Source of the DNA: a virus
Lineage: Duplodnaviria; Heunggongvirae; Uroviricota; Caudoviricetes
Length of the DNA stretch: 25,520 nucleotides
Virus record (IMG/VR): IMGVR_UViG_2695420380_000007
Reading direction: 5' to 3' (one strand)
Positions within the stretch are counted from its first letter, which is position 1, and each line of letters begins with the position of its first letter. The notes under the pieces were generated by a model that saw nothing but the letters and a program-made list of their open reading frames with translations, did no database searches and was not told where the DNA came from. A program made the translations under genes and the position numbers. Of the stretch, positions 7,216 to 25,520 are shown in pieces.

Positions 7216-7700
7216 CGCTTTCCCCCCACGTCACATCCTGGAATACATGCGACCAGTCGCCTTCGGAAGAGGGCAGGCGGGGTTTTGGCTCCGGCAGGTG
7301 TTCTGCCTGCGGTGTGCCCTGACTGCTGCGCGTGATGCGAACGCGTTCCCGCAGGGGGAGCGTAAACAGGAGATCGGCGCTGTCATCGTCATTGATAACG
7401 GCGGAAAATTTGATGTCCTGATTACGCTCCGGATTGAGCAACAACTGTGGCTGATTTTCGGATAACCACGCCAGCAGCGGCAGCGTGAGGTCGTCCAGCT
7501 CTCCGGCGTAATCCATGACAAACATCACTATCTGATANNNNNNNNNNNNNNNNNNNNNGATAGCGGTAAACAAACGATGGGGTTTCTCCGGTCGTTTCAA
7601 TGTTGCCGCTCTCCACGAAAATGGTGAATTTTTCCGGGTTGGCATGACACCACCGGCATGAACGGGTCATGGCTTCACGCAGGGAATCAGTTTTCAGCAT
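7208..7700 (-). CDS. R: Tail completion protein R (frame interrupted only by N-run 7538-7558)
   Basis: ATG at 7698-7700 (MLKTDSLREAM...); C-terminal part is ORF 7208-7645; the two join in frame if the N-run plus a 4-nt duplicated flank (gata) is removed. Confidence 0.7.
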
Positions 7701-8007
7701 GGTTGTTGTCCTCGTTGTTCAGTCNNNNNNNNNNNNNNNNNNNNNNNNNNNGTCGTTGCAGCCTGCGCTGTTCCAGTAATTCAATGGCCCGCTTATCGGC
7801 GTTACAGGTTTCCAGTGCGTCCATGAGGCTGTCGCTCCATATCCCGATGTTTCCCCATGATGGCGTCACCGGAAACGGCGGGGGAAGTACGGGGGCGGTC
7901 AGCCCTTCCGGGATGAAACGGAACGACGGCGGCGGCGCGGACGCGTTCTGCGTGCTGGTGCAACCGCTCAGTAAAGCGAGCGTCAGGAACAGCGCGGGCA
8001 CATGCAT
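7687..8007 (-). CDS. lysC: Outer-membrane spanin lipoprotein (Rz1/LysC-like), partly embedded in lysB in another frame
   Basis: ATG at 8005-8007 gives MHVPALFLTLALLSGC (lipobox LLSGC) followed by a proline-rich segment; starts inside the i-spanin gene and runs past its end. 3' end uncertain because of N-run 7725-7751. Confidence 0.6.
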   Translation of the reverse strand: MHVPALFLTLALLSGCTSTQNASAPPPSFRFIPEGLTAPVLPPPFPVTPSWGNIGIWSDSLMDALETCNADKRAIELLEQRRLQRXXXXXXXXXXLNNEDNNHAEN

Positions 8008-9333: not shown

Positions 9334-9966
9334 TCAGAGATGGCCCAGCTCACATCGCGCCACAAATCCGATGTCTGTATATCCAGTGCGTCCGCNNNNN
9401 NNNNNNNNNNNNNNNNNNNNNNNNNNNNGGCGGTCGCCCTTGTCCGTTGTGTCCGCATCGCGGTAACGCTCCAGAATCAGGGCGCGTGTGGCGGTATAAA
9501 CAGCATTGCGCCAGTGCCAGAGATTGACGCTTTCTCCGTTAATTACAGGTGCCGGAACATCGGCCAGCNNNNNNNNNNNNNNNNNNNNNNNNNNNNNNNN
9601 NNNNNNNNNNNNNNNNNNNNNNNNNNNNNNNNNNNNNNNNNNNNNNNNNNNNNNNNNNNNNNNNNNNNNNNNNNNNNNNNNNNNNNNNNNNNNNNNNNNN
9701 NNNNNNNNNNNNNNNNNNNNNNNNNNNNNNNNNNNNNNNNNNNNNNNNNNNNNNNNNNNNNNNNNNNNNNNNNNNNNNNNNNNNNNNNNNNNNNNNNNNN
9801 NNNNNNNNNNNNNNNNNNNNNNNNNNNNNNNNNNNNNNNNNNNNNNNNNNNNNNNNNNNNNNNNNNNNNNNNNNNNNNNNNNNNNNNNNNNNNNNNNNNN
9901 NNNNNNNNNNNNNNNNNNNNNNNNNNNGTGCGCGGTGTAAACGGTCACGGAGCCAAACCGGAACAC
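9334..9966 (-). CDS. L: Head completion/stabilisation protein L (largely hidden by N-runs 9397-9428 and 9569-9927)
   Basis: Position between M and X; the visible middle segment 9429-9568 encodes a clean peptide on the minus strand (LADVPAPVINGESVNLWHWRNAVYTATRALILERYRD...). Boundaries approximate. Confidence 0.5.
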   Translation of the reverse strand: MFRFGSVTVYTAHXXXXXXXXXXXXXXXXXXXXXXXXXXXXXXXXXXXXXXXXXXXXXXXXXXXXXXXXXXXXXXXXXXXXXXXXXXXXXXXXXXXXXXXXXXXXXXXXXXXXXXXXXXXXXXXXXXXXXXXXLADVPAPVINGESVNLWHWRNAVYTATRALILERYRDADTTDKGDRXXXXXXXXXXXXGRTGYTDIGFVARCELGHL

Positions 9967-12787: not shown

Positions 12788-14766
12788 ATGATGGCAAAGC
12801 GTAACAGGCTGATACAAAGGGCTTTTGTTGTAAGAAAACGGCCAGANNNNNNNNNNNNNNNNNNNNNNNNNNNNNNNNNNNNNNNNNNNNNNNNNNNNNN
12901 NNNNNNNNNNNNNNNNNNNNNNNNNNNNNNNNNNNNNNNNNNNNNNNNNNNNNNNNNNNNNNNNNNNNNNNNNNNNNNNNNNNNNNNNNNNNNNNNNNNN
13001 NNNNNNNNNNNNNNNNNNNNNNNNNNNNNNNNNNNNNNNNNNNNNNNNNNNNNNNNNNNNNNNNNNNNNNNNNNNNNNNNNNNNNNNNNNNNNNNNNNNN
13101 NNNNNNNNNNNNNNNNNNNNNNNNNNNNNNNNNNNNNNNNNNNNNNNNNNNNNNNNNNNNNNNNNNNNNNNNNNNNNNNNNNNNNNNNNNNNNNNNNNNN
13201 NNNNNNNNNNNNNNNNNNNNNNNNNNNNNNNNNNNNNNNNNNNNNNNNNNNNNNNNNNNNNNNNNNNNNNNNNNNNNNNNNNNNNNNNNNNNNGATGCGA
13301 CGGCCACAGGAAAGAAAGGCCGGGCGAAAAAACTCAAAAATCATTTCACGCCGGAACAGATTGCCGCACTGCGGGAAAAAATCATCAGCAGGCTGGAGTG
13401 GCATCAGCGGGGCTGGTTTGACTCCCTGACGCTTTGCAGGGAAGCCGGGATACGTAACAGGATGATCCTGAAATCCCGACAGATTGGGGCGACCTGGTAT
13501 TTTGCACAGGAAGCACTGCTGATGGCGCTGCGTGACGATGTGGCACAACCTTACCAGCGTAACCAGATTTTTTTGTCTGCGTCGCGTCGTCAGGCGTTCC
13601 AGTTTAAAAGCATTATTCAGAAGGCCGCGGCTGAAGTCGATGTGGAGCTGAAAGGGGGCGATAAAATCATCCTCTCCAACGGCGCAGAGATGCATTTTCT
13701 CGGCACTTCTGCTGCGACGGCGCAATCTTACACGGGCAATTTTTATTTTGATGAATTTTTCTGGGTCAGTCGCTTTGCTGAACTGCGCAAGGTGGCTGGC
13801 GCTATGGCAACCCTCAGCGGACTGCGGCGCACCTGCTTCTCCACGCCATCCACCGAAACGCACGAGGCATACGCCTACTGGAACGGCGACCGCTGGAACG
13901 AGAAAAAGGCCGCGCATAAACGCCAGCGTTTTTCTGTGGACTGGAAAACGCTGCATAACGGGCTTATCTGCCCTGACCGGACGTGGCGGCAAATTGTCAC
14001 GCTGGAAGATGTGGTTAATCACGGCTGGAAACACACCGATATTGATGAAATTCGTGATGAAAACACCGAAGACGAGTTCCGCAATCTCTATATGTGTGAG
14101 TTTGTCCGCGAAGGGGAATCGGCATTTAACCTGAATATCCTGATTGGCTGCGGTGTTGACGGATACGACGACTGGAAAGACTGGAAACCCTTTGCCCCCC
14201 GCCCGATGGGGAATCGTCCGGTATGGATTGGGTATGACGCAAACGGCAGCAGTGGTAACGGCGACAGCGGCGCTGTGTCCGTGGTGGTTCCTCCGGCTGT
14301 TCCTGGTGGTCGTTTCAGAACGGTGGAGACGCGACGCGTTCAGGGGCTGGAATTTGAAGAGCAGGCCAGAGTTATTGAAGAGTTCACGTATCGCTACAAC
14401 GTGGAACACATCGGCATTGATGCGACGGGCGGGCACGGGGATGCCGTCTATCAGATAGTGAAACGGTTTTTTCCCGCCGCCATCCCTTACACCTTCACGC
14501 TGTCATCAAAACGGTCGCTGGTACTGAAAATGCTGCAAATAATGCGTGCCGGGCGGTGGGAATACGATCGCGCCGAACGCGAGCTGGTTGCGGCCTTTAA
14601 CGCCGTGCGTAAGGTGAAAACACCGGGCGGTTTTATCACTTACGAAACGGACCGCGCGAGGGGGATCAGCCACGGCGACCTTGCGTGGGCAACCATGCTT
14701 GCTGTCATTAACGAACCGATTGGCGGCGAAGGAGAAAACGAGCGTTTCACGGTTATGGAGTTCTGA
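12788..14766 (+). CDS. P: Terminase large (ATPase) subunit P; 5' end uncertain because of N-run 12847-13293
   Basis: Unambiguous coding from 13294 (KSRQIGATWYFAQEALL... to stop at 14766). If the N-run is an artefact with a 2-nt overlap (ga), the frame joins ATGATG at 12788. ATGA overlap with Q. Confidence 0.7.
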
Positions 14767-15812
14767 TGAGCAGAAAAAATAAAAAAGTGCGCATGAGTTC
14801 ACGCATTGATCTCGCTGATGCGCTCAGGAAAGAATCGTCGCTCAGTGCATTCACATTTGATGGTCCTTACCGCCTGACCGGGCATGACCTGCTGGACAAT
14901 ATGTACTGTGCTGATAACGGGCGGTGGTATGAAACCCCGGTGGACTGGTACGGTCTGGCAAGAGCTGCCCGGCAAACGTCCTGGCATCAGTCTGCGCTTT
15001 ACTTTAAGCGCAATGTATTGCTCGGCTGCTATATTCCGCACCCGCTGCTTTCCCGGCAGGATTTCTCGGCGCTGGCGCTGGACTGGTTTGTGTTCGGTAA
15101 CGCATTCCTTGAGCTTCGGAGCAATATGCTCGGCGAACCGCTTAAATTACGGCACGCCCTGGCGAAATACATGCGACGCGGAAGCGATCTTGAATCATGG
15201 TGGTATGTGCAGGATGGCAAGGATGCGTTTCAGTTTCGTCCTGGCAAAGTGTGCCACCTGATGAATCCGGATATTAACCAGGAAATCTACGGCATGCCGG
15301 AATATCTTGGCGCATTACTCTCGGCCAGCCTTTCTCATTCGGCGGACATGTTCAGAAAACTGTACTACGACAACGGATCCCACGCCGGGTGCATCATCTA
15401 CATCGGTGCAGCGCAGGTAAACCGCGAAAGCATGGACTCCCTGAAAGAAACGCTACAGGGGGCACGTGGTGGTGGTGCGTTTAAAAACGTGCTCATTCAT
15501 GCGCCCAACGGGGGCAAAGAGGGGGTGCAAATTTTGCCGTTCCAGCAGATCACCGCAAAGGATGAGTTCATGAATGTTAAGGCGGCATCCCGTGATGATG
15601 TGCTGGCTGCGCACCGCGTTCCGCCGCAACTGATGGGGGCGATGCCGGGCGAAAAAAGTGCGTTTGGTGATGTGGAGAAGGCCGCGCGGGTTTACGCAAT
15701 TAACGAGCTGATGCCCGTCATGGAGGCCATGAAGCACATCAATGACTGGCTTGGCGAAGAGGTGATCCGCTTTAACCCTTACGCACTGTTAGACACCCAG
15801 CCCACATCCTGA
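14766..15812 (+). CDS. Q: Portal vertex protein Q
   Basis: 348 aa, ATG 14766-14768 overlapping the P stop; size and position (last gene before the presumed cos region) match P2 gpQ. Confidence 0.8.
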   Translation: MSRKNKKVRMSSRIDLADALRKESSLSAFTFDGPYRLTGHDLLDNMYCADNGRWYETPVDWYGLARAARQTSWHQSALYFKRNVLLGCYIPHPLLSRQDFSALALDWFVFGNAFLELRSNMLGEPLKLRHALAKYMRRGSDLESWWYVQDGKDAFQFRPGKVCHLMNPDINQEIYGMPEYLGALLSASLSHSADMFRKLYYDNGSHAGCIIYIGAAQVNRESMDSLKETLQGARGGGAFKNVLIHAPNGGKEGVQILPFQQITAKDEFMNVKAASRDDVLAAHRVPPQLMGAMPGEKSAFGDVEKAARVYAINELMPVMEAMKHINDWLGEEVIRFNPYALLDTQPTS

Positions 15813-15862: not shown

Positions 15863-16303
15863 GACTCTCCAGCTCCTGTATCAGTCAGATAATTTCACGA
15901 CGCTTTCCTGCTGATTGCCATCATCGACAGTCAGACTCTTACGCAATCCCACCTCGTTGACTGCATATTCTCGCCGTCTCAGTGCGATTTTGACGGCCTT
16001 ACCTTTCACCCCATCAAATCAAAAGCCCTCACGTCTTTTTCACGCTCAGCGTGAGAAATACAGCCATTCTGTTGTATCTCTGCGACATCGTTCAGGGAAT
16101 GCTATTTACCCCCTGAAACGCGGGCTGTTCCCCCGTCACCTGCGCGCAGAAAAAACGCGTTTTTTTGTGCATGCACGGATCCTTGACGGATCCAGCCGCC
16201 ACGCGGGCCGGAAGGGCAAAAAGTCGTTCAAAAAAATTGTGCAAATTTGTGCACTATTGTGCATTTATAAAATCAACTAAAAAACACCTAGTGTGACTTA
16301 CCT
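15863..16303. other. Non-coding, palindrome-rich region between Q and the cargo operon; candidate cos/packaging region
   Basis: No credible ORF. Palindromes at 16040-16054, 16150-16165 and 16167-16176; CGGATCC direct repeat at 16176-16182 and 16187-16193; G-rich 19-mer 16122-16140. P2 cos lies next to Q (established knowledge). Confidence 0.4.
16237..16263. repeat. Three direct TTGTGCA repeats at exact 10-bp phasing
   Basis: TTGTGCA at 16237-16243, 16247-16253 and 16257-16263, immediately downstream of the stop of the last cargo gene. Confidence 0.6.
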
Positions 16304-16489
16304 CTACCACTCGATCGGCACGTAGTCATTAAGTTCCGGAGACCAATTGCACTTTTCACATCTGTGTTTTCCATTCTGGCAGATACATAAACGATAACGG
16401 CCACAATGCGGGCACCCATTTTCACCATTATCATAATCACCGAGCGACCATTCCTGCATAAGCAGCTCTTCTTCATCATCATTTAGCAT
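16304..16489 (-). CDS. Small Cys-rich (zinc-ribbon-like) protein, function unknown
   Basis: 61 aa; ATG 16487-16489 preceded by AAGGGGGA; CPHCGRYRLCICQNGKHRCEKC gives a CxxC...CxC...CxxC pattern; acidic N-terminus. Confidence 0.55.
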   Translation of the reverse strand: MLNDDEEELLMQEWSLGDYDNGENGCPHCGRYRLCICQNGKHRCEKCNWSPELNDYVPIEW

Positions 16490-16503
16490 TAATCCCCCTT
16501 GAG

Positions 16504-16743
16504 CTATTTACTCTTCTCGGCCCTCAAAATCATACGAGAACCATCATCCAGCTCCCAATTAATTTCACCGCCTTCTGCCATGACTAGATGCCAAACGAGT
16601 TGAGCGGCCTCGTTGGTTACATCGCGACCGCGATCATTTCCTACGCGGCGTTTTGTTCCGTCTCCTAAGTCACGCATTTTTGCCAATACGATGGTTTTTG
16701 ATAGCGGTGAAAAACCAAGCTGTAGTCGTGCTGAATTACTCAC
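16504..16743 (-). CDS. Hypothetical protein (79 aa)
   Basis: GTG start preceded by AGGGGG with 6-nt spacing; overlaps the stop of the upstream 174-aa gene (GTGA), suggesting translational coupling. Confidence 0.5.
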   Translation of the reverse strand: MSNSARLQLGFSPLSKTIVLAKMRDLGDGTKRRVGNDRGRDVTNEAAQLVWHLVMAEGGEINWELDDGSRMILRAEKSK

Positions 16744-17264
16744 TGGCTGCCCCCTTTGTACTGTGTTAACTCTTCCTGCTCCTGCATCATGCGATTGACC
16801 TGAACGCGTGTGCGTCGAACGGCAAAATTAAATTGAAACATGAGCCGGAACATTTCTGATGCTTCCGTGTGAGCATCACGGATAGGTGACAGGCGGTACA
16901 GTTCTGCCTCCGTAGCTTGTTGAATCAATGACAGATCAAATTGAAGTGCGGGTCTGGTACATTTTGCACATCTGGCAGCAAGCTCCGGTATTAGTCTCTT
17001 AACGAAGGTGTTTTGCACCGCTTTGTTGATTTGTGTCTGCATCCAAATCGCAAATTTCAGCGAACGCATAAGTTTGATAGCCTCGGGCAGCGGCAGATAG
17101 ATCATGCTGGTAGATTTGGGTGGTTGGTGAACCATCTTCACGGATACGCGATTTCGCAGCGTTCGGAAAATCGTGTTCCCAACAACAGCTTCTACGGATA
17201 CAGGACAGGGAGCCAGACCAGCCCGCAGTGCTTCTTTCATTAGCATGTATTCGTATTTTTTCAT
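16740..17264 (-). CDS. Hypothetical protein (174 aa)
   Basis: ATG 17262-17264 preceded by GAGGAA; 60 nt downstream of parR; no family recognised from the sequence. Confidence 0.55.
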   Translation of the reverse strand: MKKYEYMLMKEALRAGLAPCPVSVEAVVGNTIFRTLRNRVSVKMVHQPPKSTSMIYLPLPEAIKLMRSLKFAIWMQTQINKAVQNTFVKRLIPELAARCAKCTRPALQFDLSLIQQATEAELYRLSPIRDAHTEASEMFRLMFQFNFAVRRTRVQVNRMMQEQEELTQYKGGSQ

Positions 17265-17324
17265 CGTGTTTTCCTCGTGCGGGGCGACAGTGCACCCCGA
17301 TAAAATTAAAAGCCGTCAAATTCG

Positions 17325-17636
17325 TCATTCAGGAAATAATGCCCGGATATTCCCTGCTATCTGACTGGTTATCTGTGCGGTTGGTACTGGCTGTGGCACG
17401 GGGCGTTCTGTCCTGGTTTGTGTCACCGATAACGCCTCATCGTCAGCCCATGCAGCCAGTCGGTAAGCCTCTGCTGGATTCATTTTCAGAAGTGCCAGCC
17501 CGGCCAGAAAAGCCACGCGTTGGCCGCTTTTGCGGGCTTCTGGTGTAAGGCTGCCCAGCCAGGCGCATGCTTCGCTTTCGTTCTTGACGGCCGCAGGCTT
17601 CAGATAGAAACTTATCCGTCTGGTTGGTGTCGTCAT
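17325..17636 (-). CDS. parR: ParR-like centromere-binding protein (ribbon-helix-helix partition adaptor)
   Basis: ATG 17634-17636 preceded by AAGGAG, 4 nt after the parM stop; 103 aa; RRISFYLKP...EARKSGQRVAFLAGLAL resembles R1 ParR/StbB (from memory). The longer track ORF 17325-17771 overlaps parM. Confidence 0.65.
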   Translation of the reverse strand: MTTPTRRISFYLKPAAVKNESEACAWLGSLTPEARKSGQRVAFLAGLALLKMNPAEAYRLAAWADDEALSVTQTRTERPVPQPVPTAQITSQIAGNIRALFPE

Positions 17637-17640
17637 TGGT

Positions 17641-18600
17641 TTACTCCTTGTCCATTGCGTACAGCCCATTAACCAGAGCAAACTGTGGCACCCCGTCCGC
17701 GATGAAAGTCGCATTAACTCCGCAGGCTTCGCGGATAGCGGGTGCCACAATCTCCGCCCCTCCACCGACAACCATCACCCGCCCGTAACCCGAAAAACCC
17801 GCCAGCGCGCGGATCACGCGTTGTTTCAGTGTTTCTTCCTTTTCACGAATAACCGCCATCAGGCTGGCGTAATGCGCGTCATTGTGGATGTGCTGGCGCA
17901 GCCAGGCTTCATCATGGCGATGTTCGATAATGGTATTGGCGATGTGGTGACTGGTGCGCATACCGTTAGTGGCCATCACCGACAGTACGGCATCGGCCAT
18001 CAGAGAAACGCCTACGTGTGGATCGCAAAACACCTGGCTGATACCTGCCAGTTGCCCCTGAACCTTTGCCACATCCAGCGTGGTTCCGCCCAAATCCACA
18101 ATCAGCAGGGATTCAAACGGACTCATGTCAGCCAGTGCCTTAAAGCCAGCCGGAATGGATTCAGGCATAACCCGCACGTTACGGATAGTGAATGCTTCGC
18201 CGTTCTGGTACTCCACCGGGCGCATAACGTTCGCTTTTTTGCGGTTGATGTTGGCCATGTCCGGCTGTGCGTTTGTGTCGAAATACTCGCTCAGTGGCAG
18301 GGTGACAACCACATCCACCTCCTGTGGCGTGATGCCTGATTTGACCAGCGCGTGATGAATGGCAATGACATTTACATCGCTGTACTGGTATTGCGTGTCG
18401 GTTGTCTGGACAAAGCGATCGCTGACCGGATCAAAACCATAGCGCACGCCATCAAGCATGTAGTTCGCGGGCTGCATGCCACCGAACGGCGCAGACCATT
18501 CCGACTTGAAGCTGTTCGGGCTGATGGCGTTGCGGCGTTCGCCGTTCTCAGTCCATGCCAGCTTGATGTTGGTGGAGCCGTCGTCGATACAAATTTTCAT
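17641..18600 (-). CDS. parM: ParM/StbA actin-like segregation ATPase
   Basis: 319 aa, ATG 18598-18600 preceded by AAGGA; shared motifs with R1 ParM recalled from memory: IDDGSTNIKL, ISPNSFK, YSDVNV, NRKKAN, VMPESIPAG, LLIVDLGGTTLD, VMVVGGGAE. Confidence 0.85.
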   Translation of the reverse strand: MKICIDDGSTNIKLAWTENGERRNAISPNSFKSEWSAPFGGMQPANYMLDGVRYGFDPVSDRFVQTTDTQYQYSDVNVIAIHHALVKSGITPQEVDVVVTLPLSEYFDTNAQPDMANINRKKANVMRPVEYQNGEAFTIRNVRVMPESIPAGFKALADMSPFESLLIVDLGGTTLDVAKVQGQLAGISQVFCDPHVGVSLMADAVLSVMATNGMRTSHHIANTIIEHRHDEAWLRQHIHNDAHYASLMAVIREKEETLKQRVIRALAGFSGYGRVMVVGGGAEIVAPAIREACGVNATFIADGVPQFALVNGLYAMDKE

Positions 18601-18630
18601 GTCGCTTTTCCTTATGTTGATTAATTAATC

Positions 18631-18743
18631 GTTTACGGGATTCTGAAATCCCGTTTTTGCCTGTTTTGTGCGCGCTTCATATATCGCTGCGCGTTTTTTG
18701 CTCATTTACGGGATTCGTGAGTCCCGTTTCTGTCTGTTTTTTG
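18631..18743. promoter_or_regulatory. Pair of about 40-bp direct repeats, each with a hairpin-forming palindrome, flanking a candidate parM promoter
   Basis: tttacgggattctgaaatcccgttt (18632-18657) and tttacgggattcgtgagtcccgttt (18705-18729), each followed by a T-rich CTGTTTT tract. Between them, on the minus strand, candidate -35 TGAGCA and -10 TATATG with a 16-nt spacer. Confidence 0.5.
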
Positions 18744-21558
18744 TTTCCACTGGTCAGGCCACCCCGCAGCAGGTCTGCTTTGCGGCGGGCGCGTTCAGTG
18801 GTTTCACTGATTCTCTGTGCGTGCTCTGCGTCGCGGATGGCGCGCAGCATGTCAGAAAGCACGGTAACGGGTGTTTTCATGGTGTTCTGGTCCTGCTGAA
18901 GTGTGGATGCCAGGCGTGCGGCGGCTTCAGGGTCTGATGCCCCCAGCTGTGTCAGATAGCTGGCGACCGGGTTATGGCGGATCTCCGTGCTGCTTACGCC
19001 ATGATTACGGCTCAGGCGCTGCCAGAGCTGCGTGATTCGGCTGTCCGGGCGGGTATCCGGTTTGCGTACAATTTCAAATCCCTGCGGTGCAATGATGCTG
19101 CCGTCAACGTACAGACTGCCGCCCCGTAACAGGTGCTGCATCTGTTGTTCACCGATATGCAGGCCGAGAGATTCAGCAGACTCCCGCCATTCTTTAGCGA
19201 GTAATTCGTGGTTATCAGGCAAAGGCCGCTGCTGTTTGCGGCTCTGTGTCCAGCTCTGCATTTCATCACTGCTGTTTTTTGCCTGTTTGTCACGAAGCGA
19301 ACGCATCAGCGCCCGGCGTTCGTGCCGTTTCAGTGAGCGCATCCATTCATCCACATCAACGCCGTCAGGGAGCTGCGGCCACGGTGCTGGCCGTTCTTCC
19401 GGCTGTTCTGTCCCGTTGTTGTCCGTTTCCTGTACACGGGGACAGTTATTGCCACGAGTCCAAGGGGCGGCAGGGCCGCCCTGAAGGTCAAAACCATTTT
19501 CGCGGGCGCTGTCTTCCGCTTCCGGTTTGCGTCTTACCAGCTTCCAGTTATCCGGATGCGTGCACACACGGNNNNNNNNNNNNNNNNNNNNNNNNNNNNN
19601 NNNNNNNNNNNNNNNNNNNNNNNNNNNNNNNNNNNNNNNNNNNNNAAATCTGTACGCTCTGTTCGCCGTAATCGTTCAGCTCATCGGCGAGGTCGTAGGC
19701 GGTGCGAATCAGGTAGTCTTTGCGTGGAACAAGTACGCCGCCCTGTTTCTCTATGTAGGTGNNNNNNNNNNNNNNNNNNNNNNNNNNNNNNNNNNNNNNN
19801 NNNNNNNNNNNNNNNNNNNNNNNNNNNNNNNNNNNNNNNNNNNNNNNNNNNNNNNNNNNNNNNNNNNNNNNNNNNNNNNNNNNNNNNNNNNNNNNNNNNN
19901 NNNNNNNNNNNNNNNNNNNNNNNNNNNNNNNNNNNNNNNNNNNNNNNNNNNNNNNNNNNNNNNNNNNNNNNNNNNNNNNNNNNNNNNNNNNNNNNNNNNN
20001 NNNNNNNNNNNNNNNNNNNNNNNNNNNNNNNNTCGATGCCATCCACGGCGCGGCTGTCCAGGTTTTTCCCGATGTAGGTGGCGATGTAGCTGGTTGGCGT
20101 GCCTTTTGAGCCGTCTACATACTCCGCCTTAAAGCGCGGAGTTATGTCATCGCCCAGCTCGTGACGATCTTCCTGAATGGCAATATCGCGGGTGTGGGAC
20201 ACAATGGTGTCGATTTCTTCCGGATGAGCAAAGACCATCATATGCCAGTGCACGGTGCCGTCATGGTGAGGCTCCGCCGTGCGGATGCCATACCAGCGCA
20301 GGCCGTCGCGGTTCAGTTTTTTGCGGACCGTCGCAAAAAACGTGTTAACCAGGTAATCGCTGGAGTCGCGCATTGTGGCCCCGTTCCATTTGGGATTCGG
20401 ATGACCGTTCTCCGTTGTGGCGTGGTATTTTGACGGGCAGGTGACAGTCAGAAACACCGCTTTGTCGCCACGGGCTTCGGCCAGAAGTTCCAGCCCCTTC
20501 ATGGTGGCCATCATTTCTGCCTTACGGTGAACCGGGTTACTTACTCCCGCGTAATACACCGTCTCGAGATCAATCGTGAACCCGTCTTCATTTTCCAGCA
20601 TGAAACTTTTCAGGAAATCGCGTGTTTTCTCGCGCTGTGCGCGAAACTCGCTTAACGCGTCCTGGCTCAGATAGGGCGATGTTTTTCTGGAAACCAGACA
20701 GGCGGCGCGAAGTTGTTCTTCTCTCCACTCGCAACGTAACAGCCACAGTTTGCGTTTCCACCATTCCGCACAGGTCAGGCGAAGGATTGCGCCCGGCAGC
20801 AGTTCTGTGTCCGGTTCGTGCCTCCGGTCTTTGTCTGTTGTCAGTGCGTCATAATGCGGAGGCATGGCGTGTAAGTGTAACGCCATGCGGGCCAGCATCT
20901 GATACGCCTTCAGCGTTACATCCATGGTCAGCTCGCCATCAGTCGCGCCAAAACCATCGCAGAGTTTTTCGAAGGTGCTGCTGAACATCGCCGCCGTCAT
21001 GGTGGCCAGCGTCTGTATCTGGTGTTTGTTGAGTTGCGGCAGGTAAAGCAAATCGTCCAGGCGTTCACGTCCGGCAAGGGAGCGATAACCCGGTGTCAGC
21101 CAGTGTCCGTCAGTGCGATCCAGACGTTCGAATATTTTGCGCAGGGTTCCGCGTGCATAGCGTTCCGCCTGCCAGCTCTTTTTGCCTTTCCGGCGATCGG
21201 CTTCCTGTTTTTTGCGCAGGAAGGAGAGGTGGCGAATAAGCGGATCGCGCAGATAGGACGGCAGCAGGCGCAGCGAGGCCATGGCTTCATCCACCGCGCC
21301 GCGTGCCTGTTTTCTGGCGTCTCCTGCCAGTGTGATGGTTTTGTCCTGTTTTTCCTGTGCGTCCAGGCTTTTATTAATCAGGTTGCCCAGTGGCGTGGCG
21401 GAGAACGCCGCATCAGCCATTTCCTGGCGGCGCTCGTTCTCTGCCCGGTGGGCATCCAGCCAGGAGGAAAGCGCGGATTCAGGAGCGGGGATCCCCGTTC
21501 CTTCACGCCCCACTGCGTGGCGCGGTTGTTGCCAGTCCCTGATGTACTCTGCCGTCAT
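18677..21558 (-). CDS. A: Replication initiation endonuclease A (rolling-circle HUH type), interrupted by N-runs 19572-19645 and 19762-20032
   Basis: N-terminal ORF 19681-21558 (ATG 21556-21558) has the HUH motif HWHMMVF. Segment 19646-19761 encodes a clean peptide that joins the N-terminal frame if the 271-N run is removed. Assignment of ORF 18677-19567 as the C-terminus is inferred. Confidence 0.75.
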
Positions 21559-22603: not shown

Positions 22604-22720
22604 TTATTCTTCAGTGAAAAAGCGTTCAATCTTTTTTACTGAATTAATAATTCGCATAATCCCAATGGCGCAGACCACCGAAATAATCANNNNNNNNNNN
22701 NNNNNNNNNNNNNAAGCCAT
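22604..22720 (-). CDS. Possible small hydrophobic protein; interrupted by N-run 22690-22713
   Basis: Hydrophobic C-terminal peptide IISVVCAIGIMRIINSV; start ambiguous. Confidence 0.2.
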   Translation of the reverse strand: MAXXXXXXXXXIISVVCAIGIMRIINSVKKIERFFTEE

Positions 22721-22792: not shown

Positions 22793-22999
22793 TCAGCTCG
22801 GAAAGTTCGTTAAGTGCATCCAGATCATCAGCGTAAAAAGNNNNNNNNNNNNNNNGTAAAAAGCCACGTCATACAGACTTCGGATTGCTCTGGTCAATGA
22901 GTCACGGGCCGCACGTTCAGCATGAGCGCCTGATGCACTTAAGCGAAAATAAAAACGCTCAAGTGCTTTGTTAATGAGAGTTTTATATTCTTTGCCCAT
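22793..22999 (-). CDS. Hypothetical early protein; interrupted by N-run 22841-22855
   Basis: ATG 22997-22999 (GTG at 23002 also possible) preceded by AAGGG; the N-run is flanked by an 8-nt duplication (gtaaaaag). Confidence 0.35.
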   Translation of the reverse strand: MGKEYKTLINKALERFYFRLSASGAHAERAARDSLTRAIRSLYDVAFYXXXXXLFTLMIWMHLTNFPS

Positions 23000-23661: not shown

Positions 23662-23940
23662 TTATTTTGTCATCTGCACGTATTTCTCTGCGTTTCTGAT
23701 GGTTTTCAGGAAAATTGCGAAGAGATTTACTTTGCGTTTTGTGTTTCTTCCTTCTTGAGTAACGGGAATTACCGATCTATCAGCCTGCCTTCTTACAGCG
23801 AGAATGCTTTGATTTGTGCGTTTCGCATAATCCTCTAGGCTTTCTTCAAGTACCGGTAGCCCATGTTCATTACGGTATGGGTAGAACGCCGCCAAACGCT
23901 CAAAATCCGCTTGTTCGTATGTGTTAAGGACTTTTGCCAT
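23662..23940 (-). CDS. Cox-like early regulator (putative excisionase / repressor of the lysogenic promoter), divergent from C
   Basis: 92 aa, ATG 23938-23940; first gene of the early leftward operon, 95 bp from and divergent to the repressor gene; helix-turn-helix-like LEDYAKRTNQSILAVRRQADRSVIP. Called by position and size, not sequence identity. Confidence 0.4.
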   Translation of the reverse strand: MAKVLNTYEQADFERLAAFYPYRNEHGLPVLEESLEDYAKRTNQSILAVRRQADRSVIPVTQEGRNTKRKVNLFAIFLKTIRNAEKYVQMTK

Positions 23941-24035
23941 GGTGTGATAACCTATTCAATCTGGTGCTATTTGTGGCTCTTTGTAGCGTCAAGTGGTACT
24001 CAACTGATAACCAATATAGTATTCAGGTGCACACC
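23941..24035. promoter_or_regulatory. Divergent early/lysogenic promoter-operator region (Pe/Pc equivalent)
   Basis: 95-bp gap between divergent starts; tandem 10-bp repeats ctatttgtgg/ctctttgtag (23967-23986); TGATAACC direct repeat at 23945-23952 and 24006-24013; candidate -10 TATAGT at 24015-24020 close to the C start. Confidence 0.5.
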
Positions 24036-24347
24036 ATGTCAATAGAGATATCAAAGAAGCTAAAAGCAATTCGAGAATCTGAGGGGCTTAGTCAGGCAAA
24101 GTTCGCGGATTCAATAGGTATTGCGGTTGGTACGGTTAAGCAATACGAGACTGGTATTCGAGGTGTGGGAACGGAGGTTTTACTGAAAATCACAATGCAC
24201 CCGGAATTTAAAAAATACACTACGTGGTTGATGAGTAACGAAACAAATGAGGCTGCTGGGCAGATCAGTCCTTCTCTCTCCCCTGATGGGCCAGAAAACA
24301 CATCGTCTTCTCAAAAATCCCGCAAGACTGGCACACAGCCCGGCTAA
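24036..24347 (+). CDS. C: Immunity repressor, P2 C-type
   Basis: ATG 24036-24038; 103 aa; LSQAKFADSIGIAVGTVKQYETG (HTH) and PEFKKYTTWLMSNE...AAGQISPSLS resemble P2 C (from memory). Confidence 0.8.
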   Translation: MSIEISKKLKAIRESEGLSQAKFADSIGIAVGTVKQYETGIRGVGTEVLLKITMHPEFKKYTTWLMSNETNEAAGQISPSLSPDGPENTSSSQKSRKTGTQPG

Positions 24348-24396
24348 TCATGGAACGCTGGGGGCATGGTGGTCTTGTAACGCTGGGGCTTCACGA

Positions 24397-25374
24397 ATGA
24401 GCATAAAATCAATTCCGGGAGGGTATCTTCTTGACATGCGTCCTGAGGGGCGTAAAGGCAAACGCATTCGCAAAAAATTTAAAACGAAATCGGATGCAGT
24501 TTTATATGAGCGGTGGGTGCTGGCGCAACAGCATAACAATGAGTGGAAAGGAAACTCCATTGATCGCCGTCCGCTGTCAGTGCTTATTGACTTGTGGTGG
24601 AAATACCACGGCCAGCTAATGAAGTCAGGGCATAACACGCGCCTTAAATTGCTGCGCTTGAGTGAGGCAATGGATGACCCGTGCGTGCATAAACTTAATA
24701 CAACGATGCTCACCGAGCTACGTGTGTCCAGGATAGAGCAGGGGATACAGCCCAGCACCATAAATCGAGAGATTGGGGCGTTAAGCGCGATGTTTACCGC
24801 ACTCATCTCATCCGGCCATTTTCTTAACGATAACCCCGTTCAAGGCCTTAAAGGAATGAAGGTTAACGAGCGTGAAATGGGATATCTGAGTAAGTCTGAA
24901 TGTGTTCAGTTGCTGGATGCACTGGCTGAAAATCCCGATGAACGGCTGGCCGTCGAAATCCTTCTGTCGACCGGGGCGCGATGGGGCGAGGTAGCGGCAC
25001 TGGAGCAGCGCCGTGTTCTTCATTGTCGAATCACTTTTTCAAAAACGAAGAACAGCAAAAACCGTACCGTTCCTATTTCTGAAAGCCTGTTTGAAAAGAT
25101 CAAAAAACGGGGCGGGAAACTGGTGTTTCCGACGCTGGATTATTCATTGGTTCGCGATGTCATCAAAACGGTCGCACCTGATGTTCCTGACGGCCAGGCT
25201 GTTCATGCGCTGCGCCACACCTTCGCCAGTCATTTCATGATGAACGGCGGCAATATTCTGACGCTCCAGAAAATTCTGGGGCACGCAAAGATTCAGACAA
25301 CGATGATTTATGCCCATCTTGCGCCGGATTACTTGCAGGATGCGGTGAGGTTTAATCCCTTGGGAGGAATGTAA
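24397..25374 (+). CDS. int: Tyrosine integrase (P2 Int-like)
   Basis: ATG 24397-24399 (internal to track ORF 24247-25374); GRKGKRIRKKF, LSTGARWGE, HALRHTFASHFMMNGGNILTLQKILGH and TMIYAH resemble P2 Int including the C-terminal Tyr region (from memory). Confidence 0.9.
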   Translation: MSIKSIPGGYLLDMRPEGRKGKRIRKKFKTKSDAVLYERWVLAQQHNNEWKGNSIDRRPLSVLIDLWWKYHGQLMKSGHNTRLKLLRLSEAMDDPCVHKLNTTMLTELRVSRIEQGIQPSTINREIGALSAMFTALISSGHFLNDNPVQGLKGMKVNEREMGYLSKSECVQLLDALAENPDERLAVEILLSTGARWGEVAALEQRRVLHCRITFSKTKNSKNRTVPISESLFEKIKKRGGKLVFPTLDYSLVRDVIKTVAPDVPDGQAVHALRHTFASHFMMNGGNILTLQKILGHAKIQTTMIYAHLAPDYLQDAVRFNPLGGM

Positions 25375-25437: not shown

Positions 25438-25520
25438 NNNNNNNNNNNNNNNNNNNNNNNNNNNNNNNNNNNNNNNNNNNNNNNNNNNNNNNNNNNNNNN
25501 NNNNNNNNNNNNCATAAAGA

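Follow-up and report, generated by a model that had tools for sequence, protein, structure and literature searches.

Why would a prophage that integrates into the chromosome of its host carry a DNA-segregation cassette of the plasmid type? The question is raised by a stretch of 25,520 nucleotides from a tailed phage, IMG/VR record IMGVR_UViG_2695420380_000007 (hereafter the window, by which we mean the whole stretch). In this P2-like prophage two adjacent genes, parM and parR, follow the gene for the replication endonuclease, gpA. A sequence-only reading of the same DNA had taken the pair for a plasmid R1-type ParM/ParR segregation module, and had found it surprising in an integrating phage. 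The answer we lean towards is that the complete type II cassette is a vertically inherited core module of P88-like phages, and that it serves a transient episomal phase of the phage, not long-term lysogeny as a plasmid. The homology of the cassette to known systems, its intactness, the purifying selection on it, its fixed position and its chromosomal residence are all established by the comparisons below.

An intact actin-type cassette

The parM gene occupies positions 17641 to 18600 on the minus strand and encodes 319 amino acids (aa) from an ATG start, with the coordinates that the sequence-only reading had given. The adaptor gene parR (17325-17636, minus strand) encodes 103 aa and begins at an internal ATG at 17636, within a longer mechanical open reading frame (ORF) at 17325-17771. 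The gap between the two genes is 4 nt (stop codon TAA, then ACCA, then ATG), and a ribosome-binding site, AAGGAG, lies 7-8 nt upstream of the parR start. The gene sizes, the short gap and the ribosome-binding site are all as first read.

ParM matches the Pfam domains StbA_N (2.7e-82) and ParM C-terminal domain (1.3e-68) and belongs to PHROG 691, 'partition protein'. Its residues 2-316 align full-length to the crystal-structure chains of R1 ParM, including 1mwk, with an E-value of 8.5e-93. Together with the integrase and the repressor present in the window, these matches bear out the claim of an R1-type module inside an integrative P2-like prophage. By identity, the nearest genuine plasmid ParM is 52.6% identical to that of the window, and the ParM of the P1-like phage-plasmid D6 is 47.8% identical.

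Degenerate ATP-binding residues had been named beforehand as a finding that would speak against the sequence-only reading; all nucleotide-binding motifs turn out to be intact. The phosphate-1 motif (D6, D7, G8, S9, T10) together with E147, the phosphate-2 motif (D169-L-G-G-T-T174) and the adenosine motif (G279, G280, G281, A282) are invariant in 11 phage-type homologues. The catalytic Glu and Asp by which an R1-type ParM is recognised (E148 and D170 in R1) are present as E147 and D169. Further, ParM is full-length in 86 of 86 close copies, and parM is under strong purifying selection: the median dN/dS among close copies is 0.049.

ParR matches the Pfam family Plasmid_stab_B (PF10784; 2e-23) and PHROG 2515, 'partition protein', and in BLASTP it is 32% identical to R1-type ParR across the N-terminal 56 aa (E 2e-7). 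A sequence search against solved ParR structures gave no match. Among close alleles the N-terminal segment R6-R7-I-S-F-Y-L-K-P14 and the helices that follow it are invariant, and so is the extreme C-terminus, N96-I97...F101-P102 (N-I-x-x-x-F-P). The linker at about residues 65-93 is hypervariable, with more non-synonymous than synonymous differences. Dozens of ParR alleles, 51-93% identical, are paired with a nearly invariant ParM (98-100%); at an E. albertii locus a ParM of 99% identity stands beside a ParR of 52%. Either a recombination boundary of the neighbouring hotspot, described in the next section, crosses parR, or the ParR linker is under diversifying selection.

The C-terminal ends of distant phage ParRs read ..KNAASLFPR or ..RQNASNLFPG, and R1-type ParR ends in ..KKNAMKLIN, a tail that we take to be the ParM-binding helix or peptide (PDB 4a62). 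An AlphaFold model of the ParR monomer, built from a 15-sequence alignment and of low confidence (mean pLDDT 56.8), leaves residues 1-17 unstructured and places helices at 20-29, 32-52 and 54-61; a C-terminal helix (86-100) follows a disordered linker. The unstructured N-terminus could be a strand whose pairing partner comes with the dimer, as in ribbon-helix-helix proteins, but the model is no proof of this. In general the predicted picture would fit an adaptor whose head binds DNA and whose tail, on a flexible tether, binds the motor. As far as the sequences tell, the two genes are a genuine, intact type II DNA-segregation cassette consisting of an actin-like ParM and a ParR adaptor.

A fixed module beside a variable hotspot

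The window is a P88-like (Xuanwuvirus, Peduoviridae) P2-like prophage with the gene order int-C-cox...gpA-parM-parR...portal, the same as in P88. The integrase and a helix-turn-helix repressor are found at 23934-25374 and the portal gene at 14766-15812. The rolling-circle replication endonuclease gpA (18677-21558, minus strand; Pfam Phage_GPA, 2.5e-131) ends 76 bp upstream of parM. The early operon on the minus strand runs through gpA, parM, parR and then three cargo genes to a terminator-like hairpin at about 16239-16254. The region 16200-19570 is 97-98% identical in nucleotides to phage P88 and to Citrobacter phage phiSM; against P88 the identity is 98.4% across the matched 69% of the region, and the remainder is variable cargo downstream of parR.

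The gene pair is already an annotated and published feature of the P88-like branch, and the sighting itself matters little. It has been annotated since the O157:H7 Sakai genome, where in prophage Sp13 the genes are stbA (ECs_2634) and ECs_2635 and ParM is 98% identical to that of the window. In the P88 record the genes (gp17 and gp18) are annotated 'plasmid segregation protein ParM' and 'partition protein', directly after the replication endonuclease gene; in phiSM they are parM and parP, RefSeq names both, and both have PHROG families of their own. The copies in P88, phiSM and Sp13 are 97-99% identical to the window in nucleotides and 98-99.7% in ParM, with the same place after gpA, and they differ from it only in the cargo downstream of parR and in the allele of the ParR linker. 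The phiSM gene was listed as a 'fitness' factor by Magaziner et al. 2019 (PMC6456863), and Rousset et al. 2022 (PMC9122126) commented that about a quarter of P2-like phages have a putative partition system, perhaps for plasmid maintenance.

Among 5426 complete E. coli genomes, 1308 (about a quarter) have the 1.4-kb parMR module. With a module that is this frequent, fixed in its lineage, long annotated and already discussed in print in 2022, the surprise at finding it in an integrating prophage does not hold up. In the phage database, a ParM of the window's type is found only in Xuanwuvirus records and in the P1-like phage D6. The pair is thus not a fixed gene of all P2-like phages, which was another finding that had been named as counting against the sequence-only reading. 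On a 226-kb contig of 'Vagococcus sp. WN89Y' (NZ_JBQPOM010000071.1) there is also a P88-like prophage whose ParM is 98% and whose portal is 100% identical to that of the window; this is most likely enterobacterial contamination of a Gram-positive assembly.

Is the cassette part of the phage core, or is it cargo? Close relatives were taken from IMG/VR and from genomes, and 75-81 close loci were compared by their 600-bp flanks. Downstream of parR these flanks are of 21 unrelated types, while upstream of parM they are essentially of one type. This difference marks parMR as the conserved flank of the gpA-portal hotspot, a lineage-fixed core module and not cargo. The earlier suggestion that the pair had been co-opted by the adjacent cargo genes is at odds with this result, as 21 kinds of DNA follow the same parMR.

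The order gpA-parM-parR-variable genes-portal also holds at greater distance: it is found in Plesiomonas, where ParM is 63% identical, in Hafnia (62%), in Serratia (58%) and, with two extra genes between gpA and parM, in Enterobacter (54%). In a scan of species representatives, gpA is found upstream of every ParM of at least 58% identity and of none at 53% or below. In a neighbour-joining tree the ParMs with phage context are separated from the others by a split with a bootstrap of only 107/200, and there are two clear subclades. What is added here to the existing annotation is the lineage-fixed status, the ParR domain picture and a candidate two-box centromere.

In the window, the cargo after parR (16304-17264, minus strand) encodes a 174-aa protein without family match, a 79-aa DUF7446 protein and a 61-aa zinc-ribbon protein, and this three-gene type is common to only 7 of 75 close loci. 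The PADLOC models matched neither ParM, ParR nor the products of the three downstream cargo genes. Given its place in the gpA-portal hotspot, the three-gene cargo is a candidate uncharacterised defence or accessory system.

The cassette adjoins this defence hotspot (PMC9122126), and it might itself be a weapon: resident ParR and ParM could disturb the way in which R1/IncF-type plasmids or superinfecting P88-like phages are partitioned, much as the sequence-only reading had proposed with centromere competition against R1. The many ParR alleles with their hypervariable linker could reflect an arms race. However, the variation is concentrated in the linker, and the N-terminal segment that would read the DNA is invariant among the alleles. 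The 11-bp, A/C-rich direct iterons of R1 type are unlike the dyad boxes of the phage (see below), and the predicted DNA-binding parts of the two ParRs are only 32% identical, which argues against incompatibility with R1. No defence model was matched, and the module stays fixed while the true hotspot cargo turns over. A role as weapon or in exclusion is, in our judgement, very improbable.

A second explanation is that the phage lives as a plasmid. The prophage would then persist at low copy number over many generations, as a facultative phage-plasmid, for example when the attachment site is missing. This kind of cassette is otherwise found on low-copy plasmids, the idea was suggested in passing by Rousset et al. 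2022 (PMC9122126), and a circular record of 34,461 bp, deposited as an E. coli plasmid (NZ_CP148288.1), is a whole P88-like genome with int, gpA, parM and parR. Against it stand the places that the module occupies in the complete E. coli genomes, 1454 chromosomal versus 2 on plasmids. Further, no plasmid replication initiator was found in P88 or in the circular record, where gpA is the only replicase and belongs to the repressor-controlled early operon. A true P2-like phage-plasmid, paPv10 of Arsenophonus, has RepA and a ParA-like ATPase replacing int, and no ParM.

The circle itself has a counterpart in pENTAS02 of Enterobacter soli, a phage-sized circular record of an integrase-bearing P2-like phage without parMR. 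Because such a circle exists, the single P88-like one is not specific evidence, and in view of pENTAS02 and of the Arsenophonus phage-plasmid with RepA and ParA we discounted the 34.5-kb circle as a sign of plasmid life. Persistence as a plasmid is hence an explanation that we regard as improbable. Of the episomal maintenance considered in the sequence-only reading, the stable form is made unlikely by the chromosomal places and the lack of a plasmid initiator, and maintenance of a transient excised or infecting circle stays plausible.

Two observations on these circular records may be added. NZ_CP148288.1 also holds, near attP, a gene for a Hok/Gef family toxin (1291-1431) and a Com-regulated DNA methyltransferase (110-1076); both are further plasmid-like or addiction-type accessories of the P88-like lineage. 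The 33.8-kb record of paPv10 (Arsenophonus nasoniae, NZ_CP123514.1) is a complete P2-like phage genome as plasmid, there are several similar Arsenophonus records of 33-36 kb, and together they appear to be a P2-like phage-plasmid group.

The annotation of gpA needs a correction. A 296-aa ORF at 18677-19567, which some records label as a partition protein, was rejected as a third partition gene of its own and is the C-terminus of gpA. In P88 gpA is a single gene of 2823 nt (940 aa), the 296-aa piece matches PHROG 91, 'nicking at origin of replication' (PHROG 6857 agrees), and in the window gpA is interrupted by N masks at 19572-19645 and 19762-20032, which split the ORF. These two are among 11 N-masked runs; the others are at 1894-1981, 7538-7558, 7725-7751, 9396-9428, 9569-9927, 12847-13293, 22690-22713, 22841-22855 and 25438-25512. 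The masked runs cause spurious ORF boundaries, notably the split of gpA, as well as apparent low-GC dips in the composition profile. The length of the C-terminal part of gpA also differs by lineage: gpA has 789 aa in Plesiomonas and 907 aa in Serratia, and in Hafnia 835 aa plus a separate ORF of 167 aa. A search with Rfam over the whole window gave no match.

The region between gpA and parM

If the proteins are intact, where would ParR bind? Two dyad boxes stand upstream of parM. The proximal box, ACGGGATT-N4-AATCCCGT with the core GGGA-N8-TCCC, is located at 18635-18654, that is, at -54 to -35 from the parM ATG, and is a candidate ParR site (parC) and a possible operator. The distal box, ACGGGACTCACGAATCCCGT, at 18708-18727, is a second candidate ParR site; it lies 73 bp upstream of the proximal one and inside the 3' end of gpA, where it falls in the last codons of the long (940-aa) P88-like form of the gene. 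A repeat search places each box in one copy of a 42-nt direct repeat. Copy 1 (18629-18670) holds the proximal box and, in the minus-strand reading, an A-rich 5' flank, and copy 2 (18702-18743) holds the distal box. The copies are 81% identical and 73 bp apart, and each contains a 20-nt palindrome. In a complete 34.4-kb relative GGGA-N8-TCCC occurs no more than twice, both times upstream of parM.

Closer to the gene a conserved leader (18609-18630, minus strand) consists of the palindrome GATTAATTAATC at 18619-18630, followed by the Shine-Dalgarno sequence AAGGA at 18609-18613. The leader motif ATTAATCAA..TAAGG is common to the Plesiomonas and Hafnia relatives.

The positions of the GGG-N10-CCC boxes are also similar in these relatives: -125 and -52 in the E. 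coli window, -131 and -59 in Plesiomonas, and -128 and -55 in Hafnia. The spacing between the boxes is 73, 72 and 73 bp, respectively, and the flanking DNA is unalignable. When the sequences were shuffled 200,000 times, two boxes 70-75 bp apart arose at a frequency of 7e-5 for E. coli, 1.5e-5 for Plesiomonas and 0 for Hafnia. In the Serratia/Enterobacter subclade the N-terminus of ParR is slightly different and the inverted repeats are different. In Enterobacter these repeats stay beside parM although gpA is 1.2 kb away, with two genes between. The defective Sakai prophage Sp13 (9880-9905 of the fetched locus) has a mutated arm in its proximal box (GCGGGATTTAAAAATCCTGT) and an IS629 directly after parR; its ParM is intact and 98% identical.

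A parC of the R1 type consists of direct iterons (10 x 11 bp in R1) that flank the par promoter. Upstream of the phage parM neither an iteron array nor a sigma-70 consensus promoter was found, and the two dyad boxes are there instead. Near parMR no other repeat families were found, nor does the coding strand have a terminator between gpA and parM. In three plasmid relatives a promoter is surrounded by iteron arrays of the classical kind. In the phage boxes the half-sites, [A/T]CCC, resemble the ACCC cores of R1-type iterons. We infer that the two dyad boxes are ParR sites, in a centromere whose architecture would be unlike that of R1; the proximal box, beside the ATTAATCAA..TAAGG leader, may double as operator.

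Alternatively, the proteins are real but the boxes are no centromere. They could be RNA hairpins that act in processing or stability between gpA and parM, or antisense terminators, with the ParR site elsewhere or lost. The 160-nt leader does fold unusually well as RNA in E. coli (z -4.3), where the boxes form hairpins of -8.7 and -10.7 kcal/mol, and on the plus strand a T-run follows each box, which scores as a terminator. On the coding strand, however, no T-run follows. Further, the boxes of Plesiomonas and Hafnia keep only GGG-N10-CCC: as RNA they have stems of 3-4 bp and -4 to -5 kcal/mol, and two of the four are no better than shuffles. Because of these weak hairpins, the conserved feature is the GGG/CCC spacing, as would be expected for protein-DNA contacts. 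The iteron-like half-sites and the lack of any other repeat family near parMR also argue against this explanation, which we hold to be unlikely.

A probable role at a transient phage circle, and known counterparts

How could such a cassette serve a phage that is normally integrated? Its genes directly follow gene A, which encodes the rolling-circle initiator, at the distal end of the early replication operon. In the integrated prophage the early promoter would be repressed and the cassette silent; after infection, or after derepression and excision, parMR would be made together with gpA. ParR dimers would then attach to the two dyad boxes (GGG-N10-CCC) that stand just in front of parM, and the conserved C-terminal helix of ParR would capture ParM filaments. 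These filaments would push or position the monomeric phage circles that arise from gpA replication, so that extrachromosomal copies would spread to both cell halves and to the daughters and stay replication-competent until integration or packaging. The replication of P2 yields monomeric circles, which are the packaging substrate and are physically plasmid-like.

In the Sakai prophage Sp13 the head genes are lost, but int, the early region, gpA and parMR are still there (PMC2669165). It excises spontaneously and circularises, and on mitomycin C the circle rises about 30-fold and early-region transcripts are induced (PMC2669165). Two systems studied by experiment and described below, srpMRC (PMC4489591) and AlpAC (PMC4446434), are precedents for the role proposed here. 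Expression values for the individual genes ECs2634 and ECs2635 are not in the supplements of PMC2669165.

The same events can be read without any inheritance. The cassette may be a purely lytic viral cytoskeleton, in which ParM filaments position the replicating DNA for replication and packaging. Its place in the replication operon right after gpA is consistent with this, as is its strong conservation in inducible, lytic phages (P88, phiSM, and Sp13 on induction), and there is a precedent in AlpAC, an early-induced operon whose adaptor binds upstream of its own operon (PMC4446434). However, P2 itself and most other P2-like phages manage replication and packaging with no such system, and the phage database has the gene in Xuanwuvirus only. 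Further, this explanation overlaps with the role at a transient circle and differs from it only in which phenotype matters. A purely lytic role is possible, and we give it some weight, well below an even chance.

Several points tell against the transient-circle role that we prefer. The timing of expression would follow only from the consensus signals that are absent. The candidate ParR sites number only two, where R1 has ten iterons, and their role might be that of an operator and no more; as RNA, the E. coli boxes would also fold into stable hairpins, and on the opposite strand they are terminator-like. A single ancient origin of the phage ParMs has modest support in the tree, with a bootstrap of 107/200. 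Literature searches for experiments on the cassette in P2-like phages gave annotations and one speculative sentence, and no experiment. Finally, the data fit inheritance by daughter cells and organisation of lytic replication alike and cannot separate them. There is a bolder version, which we rate as unlikely: an R1-family actin motor with a minimal two-site centromere would make an excised or injected P88-like genome a heritable episome for some generations (a facultative carrier state), or else form a cytoskeleton that organises rolling-circle replication. The phage would in that case offer a natural minimal parC and a tractable E. coli model for actin-driven positioning of viral DNA.

What is notable is that an intact actin machine of plasmid type has been retained, under strong purifying selection, in a prophage lineage that is very common in E. 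coli, while its ParM diverged to about 55-60% identity. If the cassette does stabilise or position a transient circle, the principle that integrative elements also partition would be extended from integrative and conjugative elements (ICEs) to tailed phages. It would also account for the inheritance or organisation of P2-type genomes, which replicate by rolling circle, before they integrate or are packaged. As a centromere, the proposed two-box site would be unusually small.

Among the closest known systems is ParMRC of plasmids R1 and NR1 (StbA/StbB/parC), of type II. A system of this type gives stability to low-copy replicons that are otherwise unstable, with a ParM that forms dynamic filaments. 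ParM is homologous over its full length, with roughly half of the residues identical and all nucleotide-binding motifs; parR lies directly downstream and belongs to the same Pfam family, with the N-terminus RRISFYLKP in the phage and RRTIAFKLNP in the R1 type; and repeated sites are found upstream of parM. However, the phage ParM is a separate, old lineage. In R1-type plasmids a strong promoter is flanked by two sets of five direct iterons of 11 bp each. In the phage the place of the iterons is taken by a pair of dyad boxes at a spacing of 73 bp, and there is no consensus promoter. The replicons differ as well, the phage being integrating and rolling-circle and R1 a low-copy theta plasmid.

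Among phages, the StbA-type partition system of D6 is the only other match to this ParM family in the phage database, at the 47.8% identity given above. In contrast to the window, D6 (91 kb) is a prophage that truly lives as a plasmid, with a ParM that groups with plasmid-type sequences. Phage-plasmids such as P1, N15 and SSU5 are extrachromosomal, carry a plasmid initiator and usually no integrase, whereas the window has an integrase. From an anti-phage defence system of the P2 hotspot one would expect a variable presence and a match to a known defence model; parMR is constant and without PADLOC match.

The AlpAC/alpS system of prophage CGP3 in Corynebacterium glutamicum likewise has an actin-like ATPase and an adaptor, which binds DNA in front of the operon that encodes it (Donovan et al. 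2015, PMC4446434). It is induced early, acts on circular phage DNA and is needed for efficient viral DNA replication (PMC4446434). It differs from the phage cassette in its actin-like family, its Gram-positive host and its gene order, and the phenotype demonstrated for it is efficient replication.

In its setting, srpMRC of the SXT/R391 ICEs is similar to the phage cassette, being an actin-type partition cassette in a normally chromosomal element (Carraro et al. 2015, PMC4489591). It is expressed only on activation, has four 13-bp repeats and stabilises the excised form, which replicates by rolling circle (PMC4489591). SrpM is distant from R1 ParM and SrpR has no recognisable similarity to ParR, while the phage proteins clearly belong to the R1 family. 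For the ICE the function has been shown by experiment, and the phage cassette is known here from its sequence.

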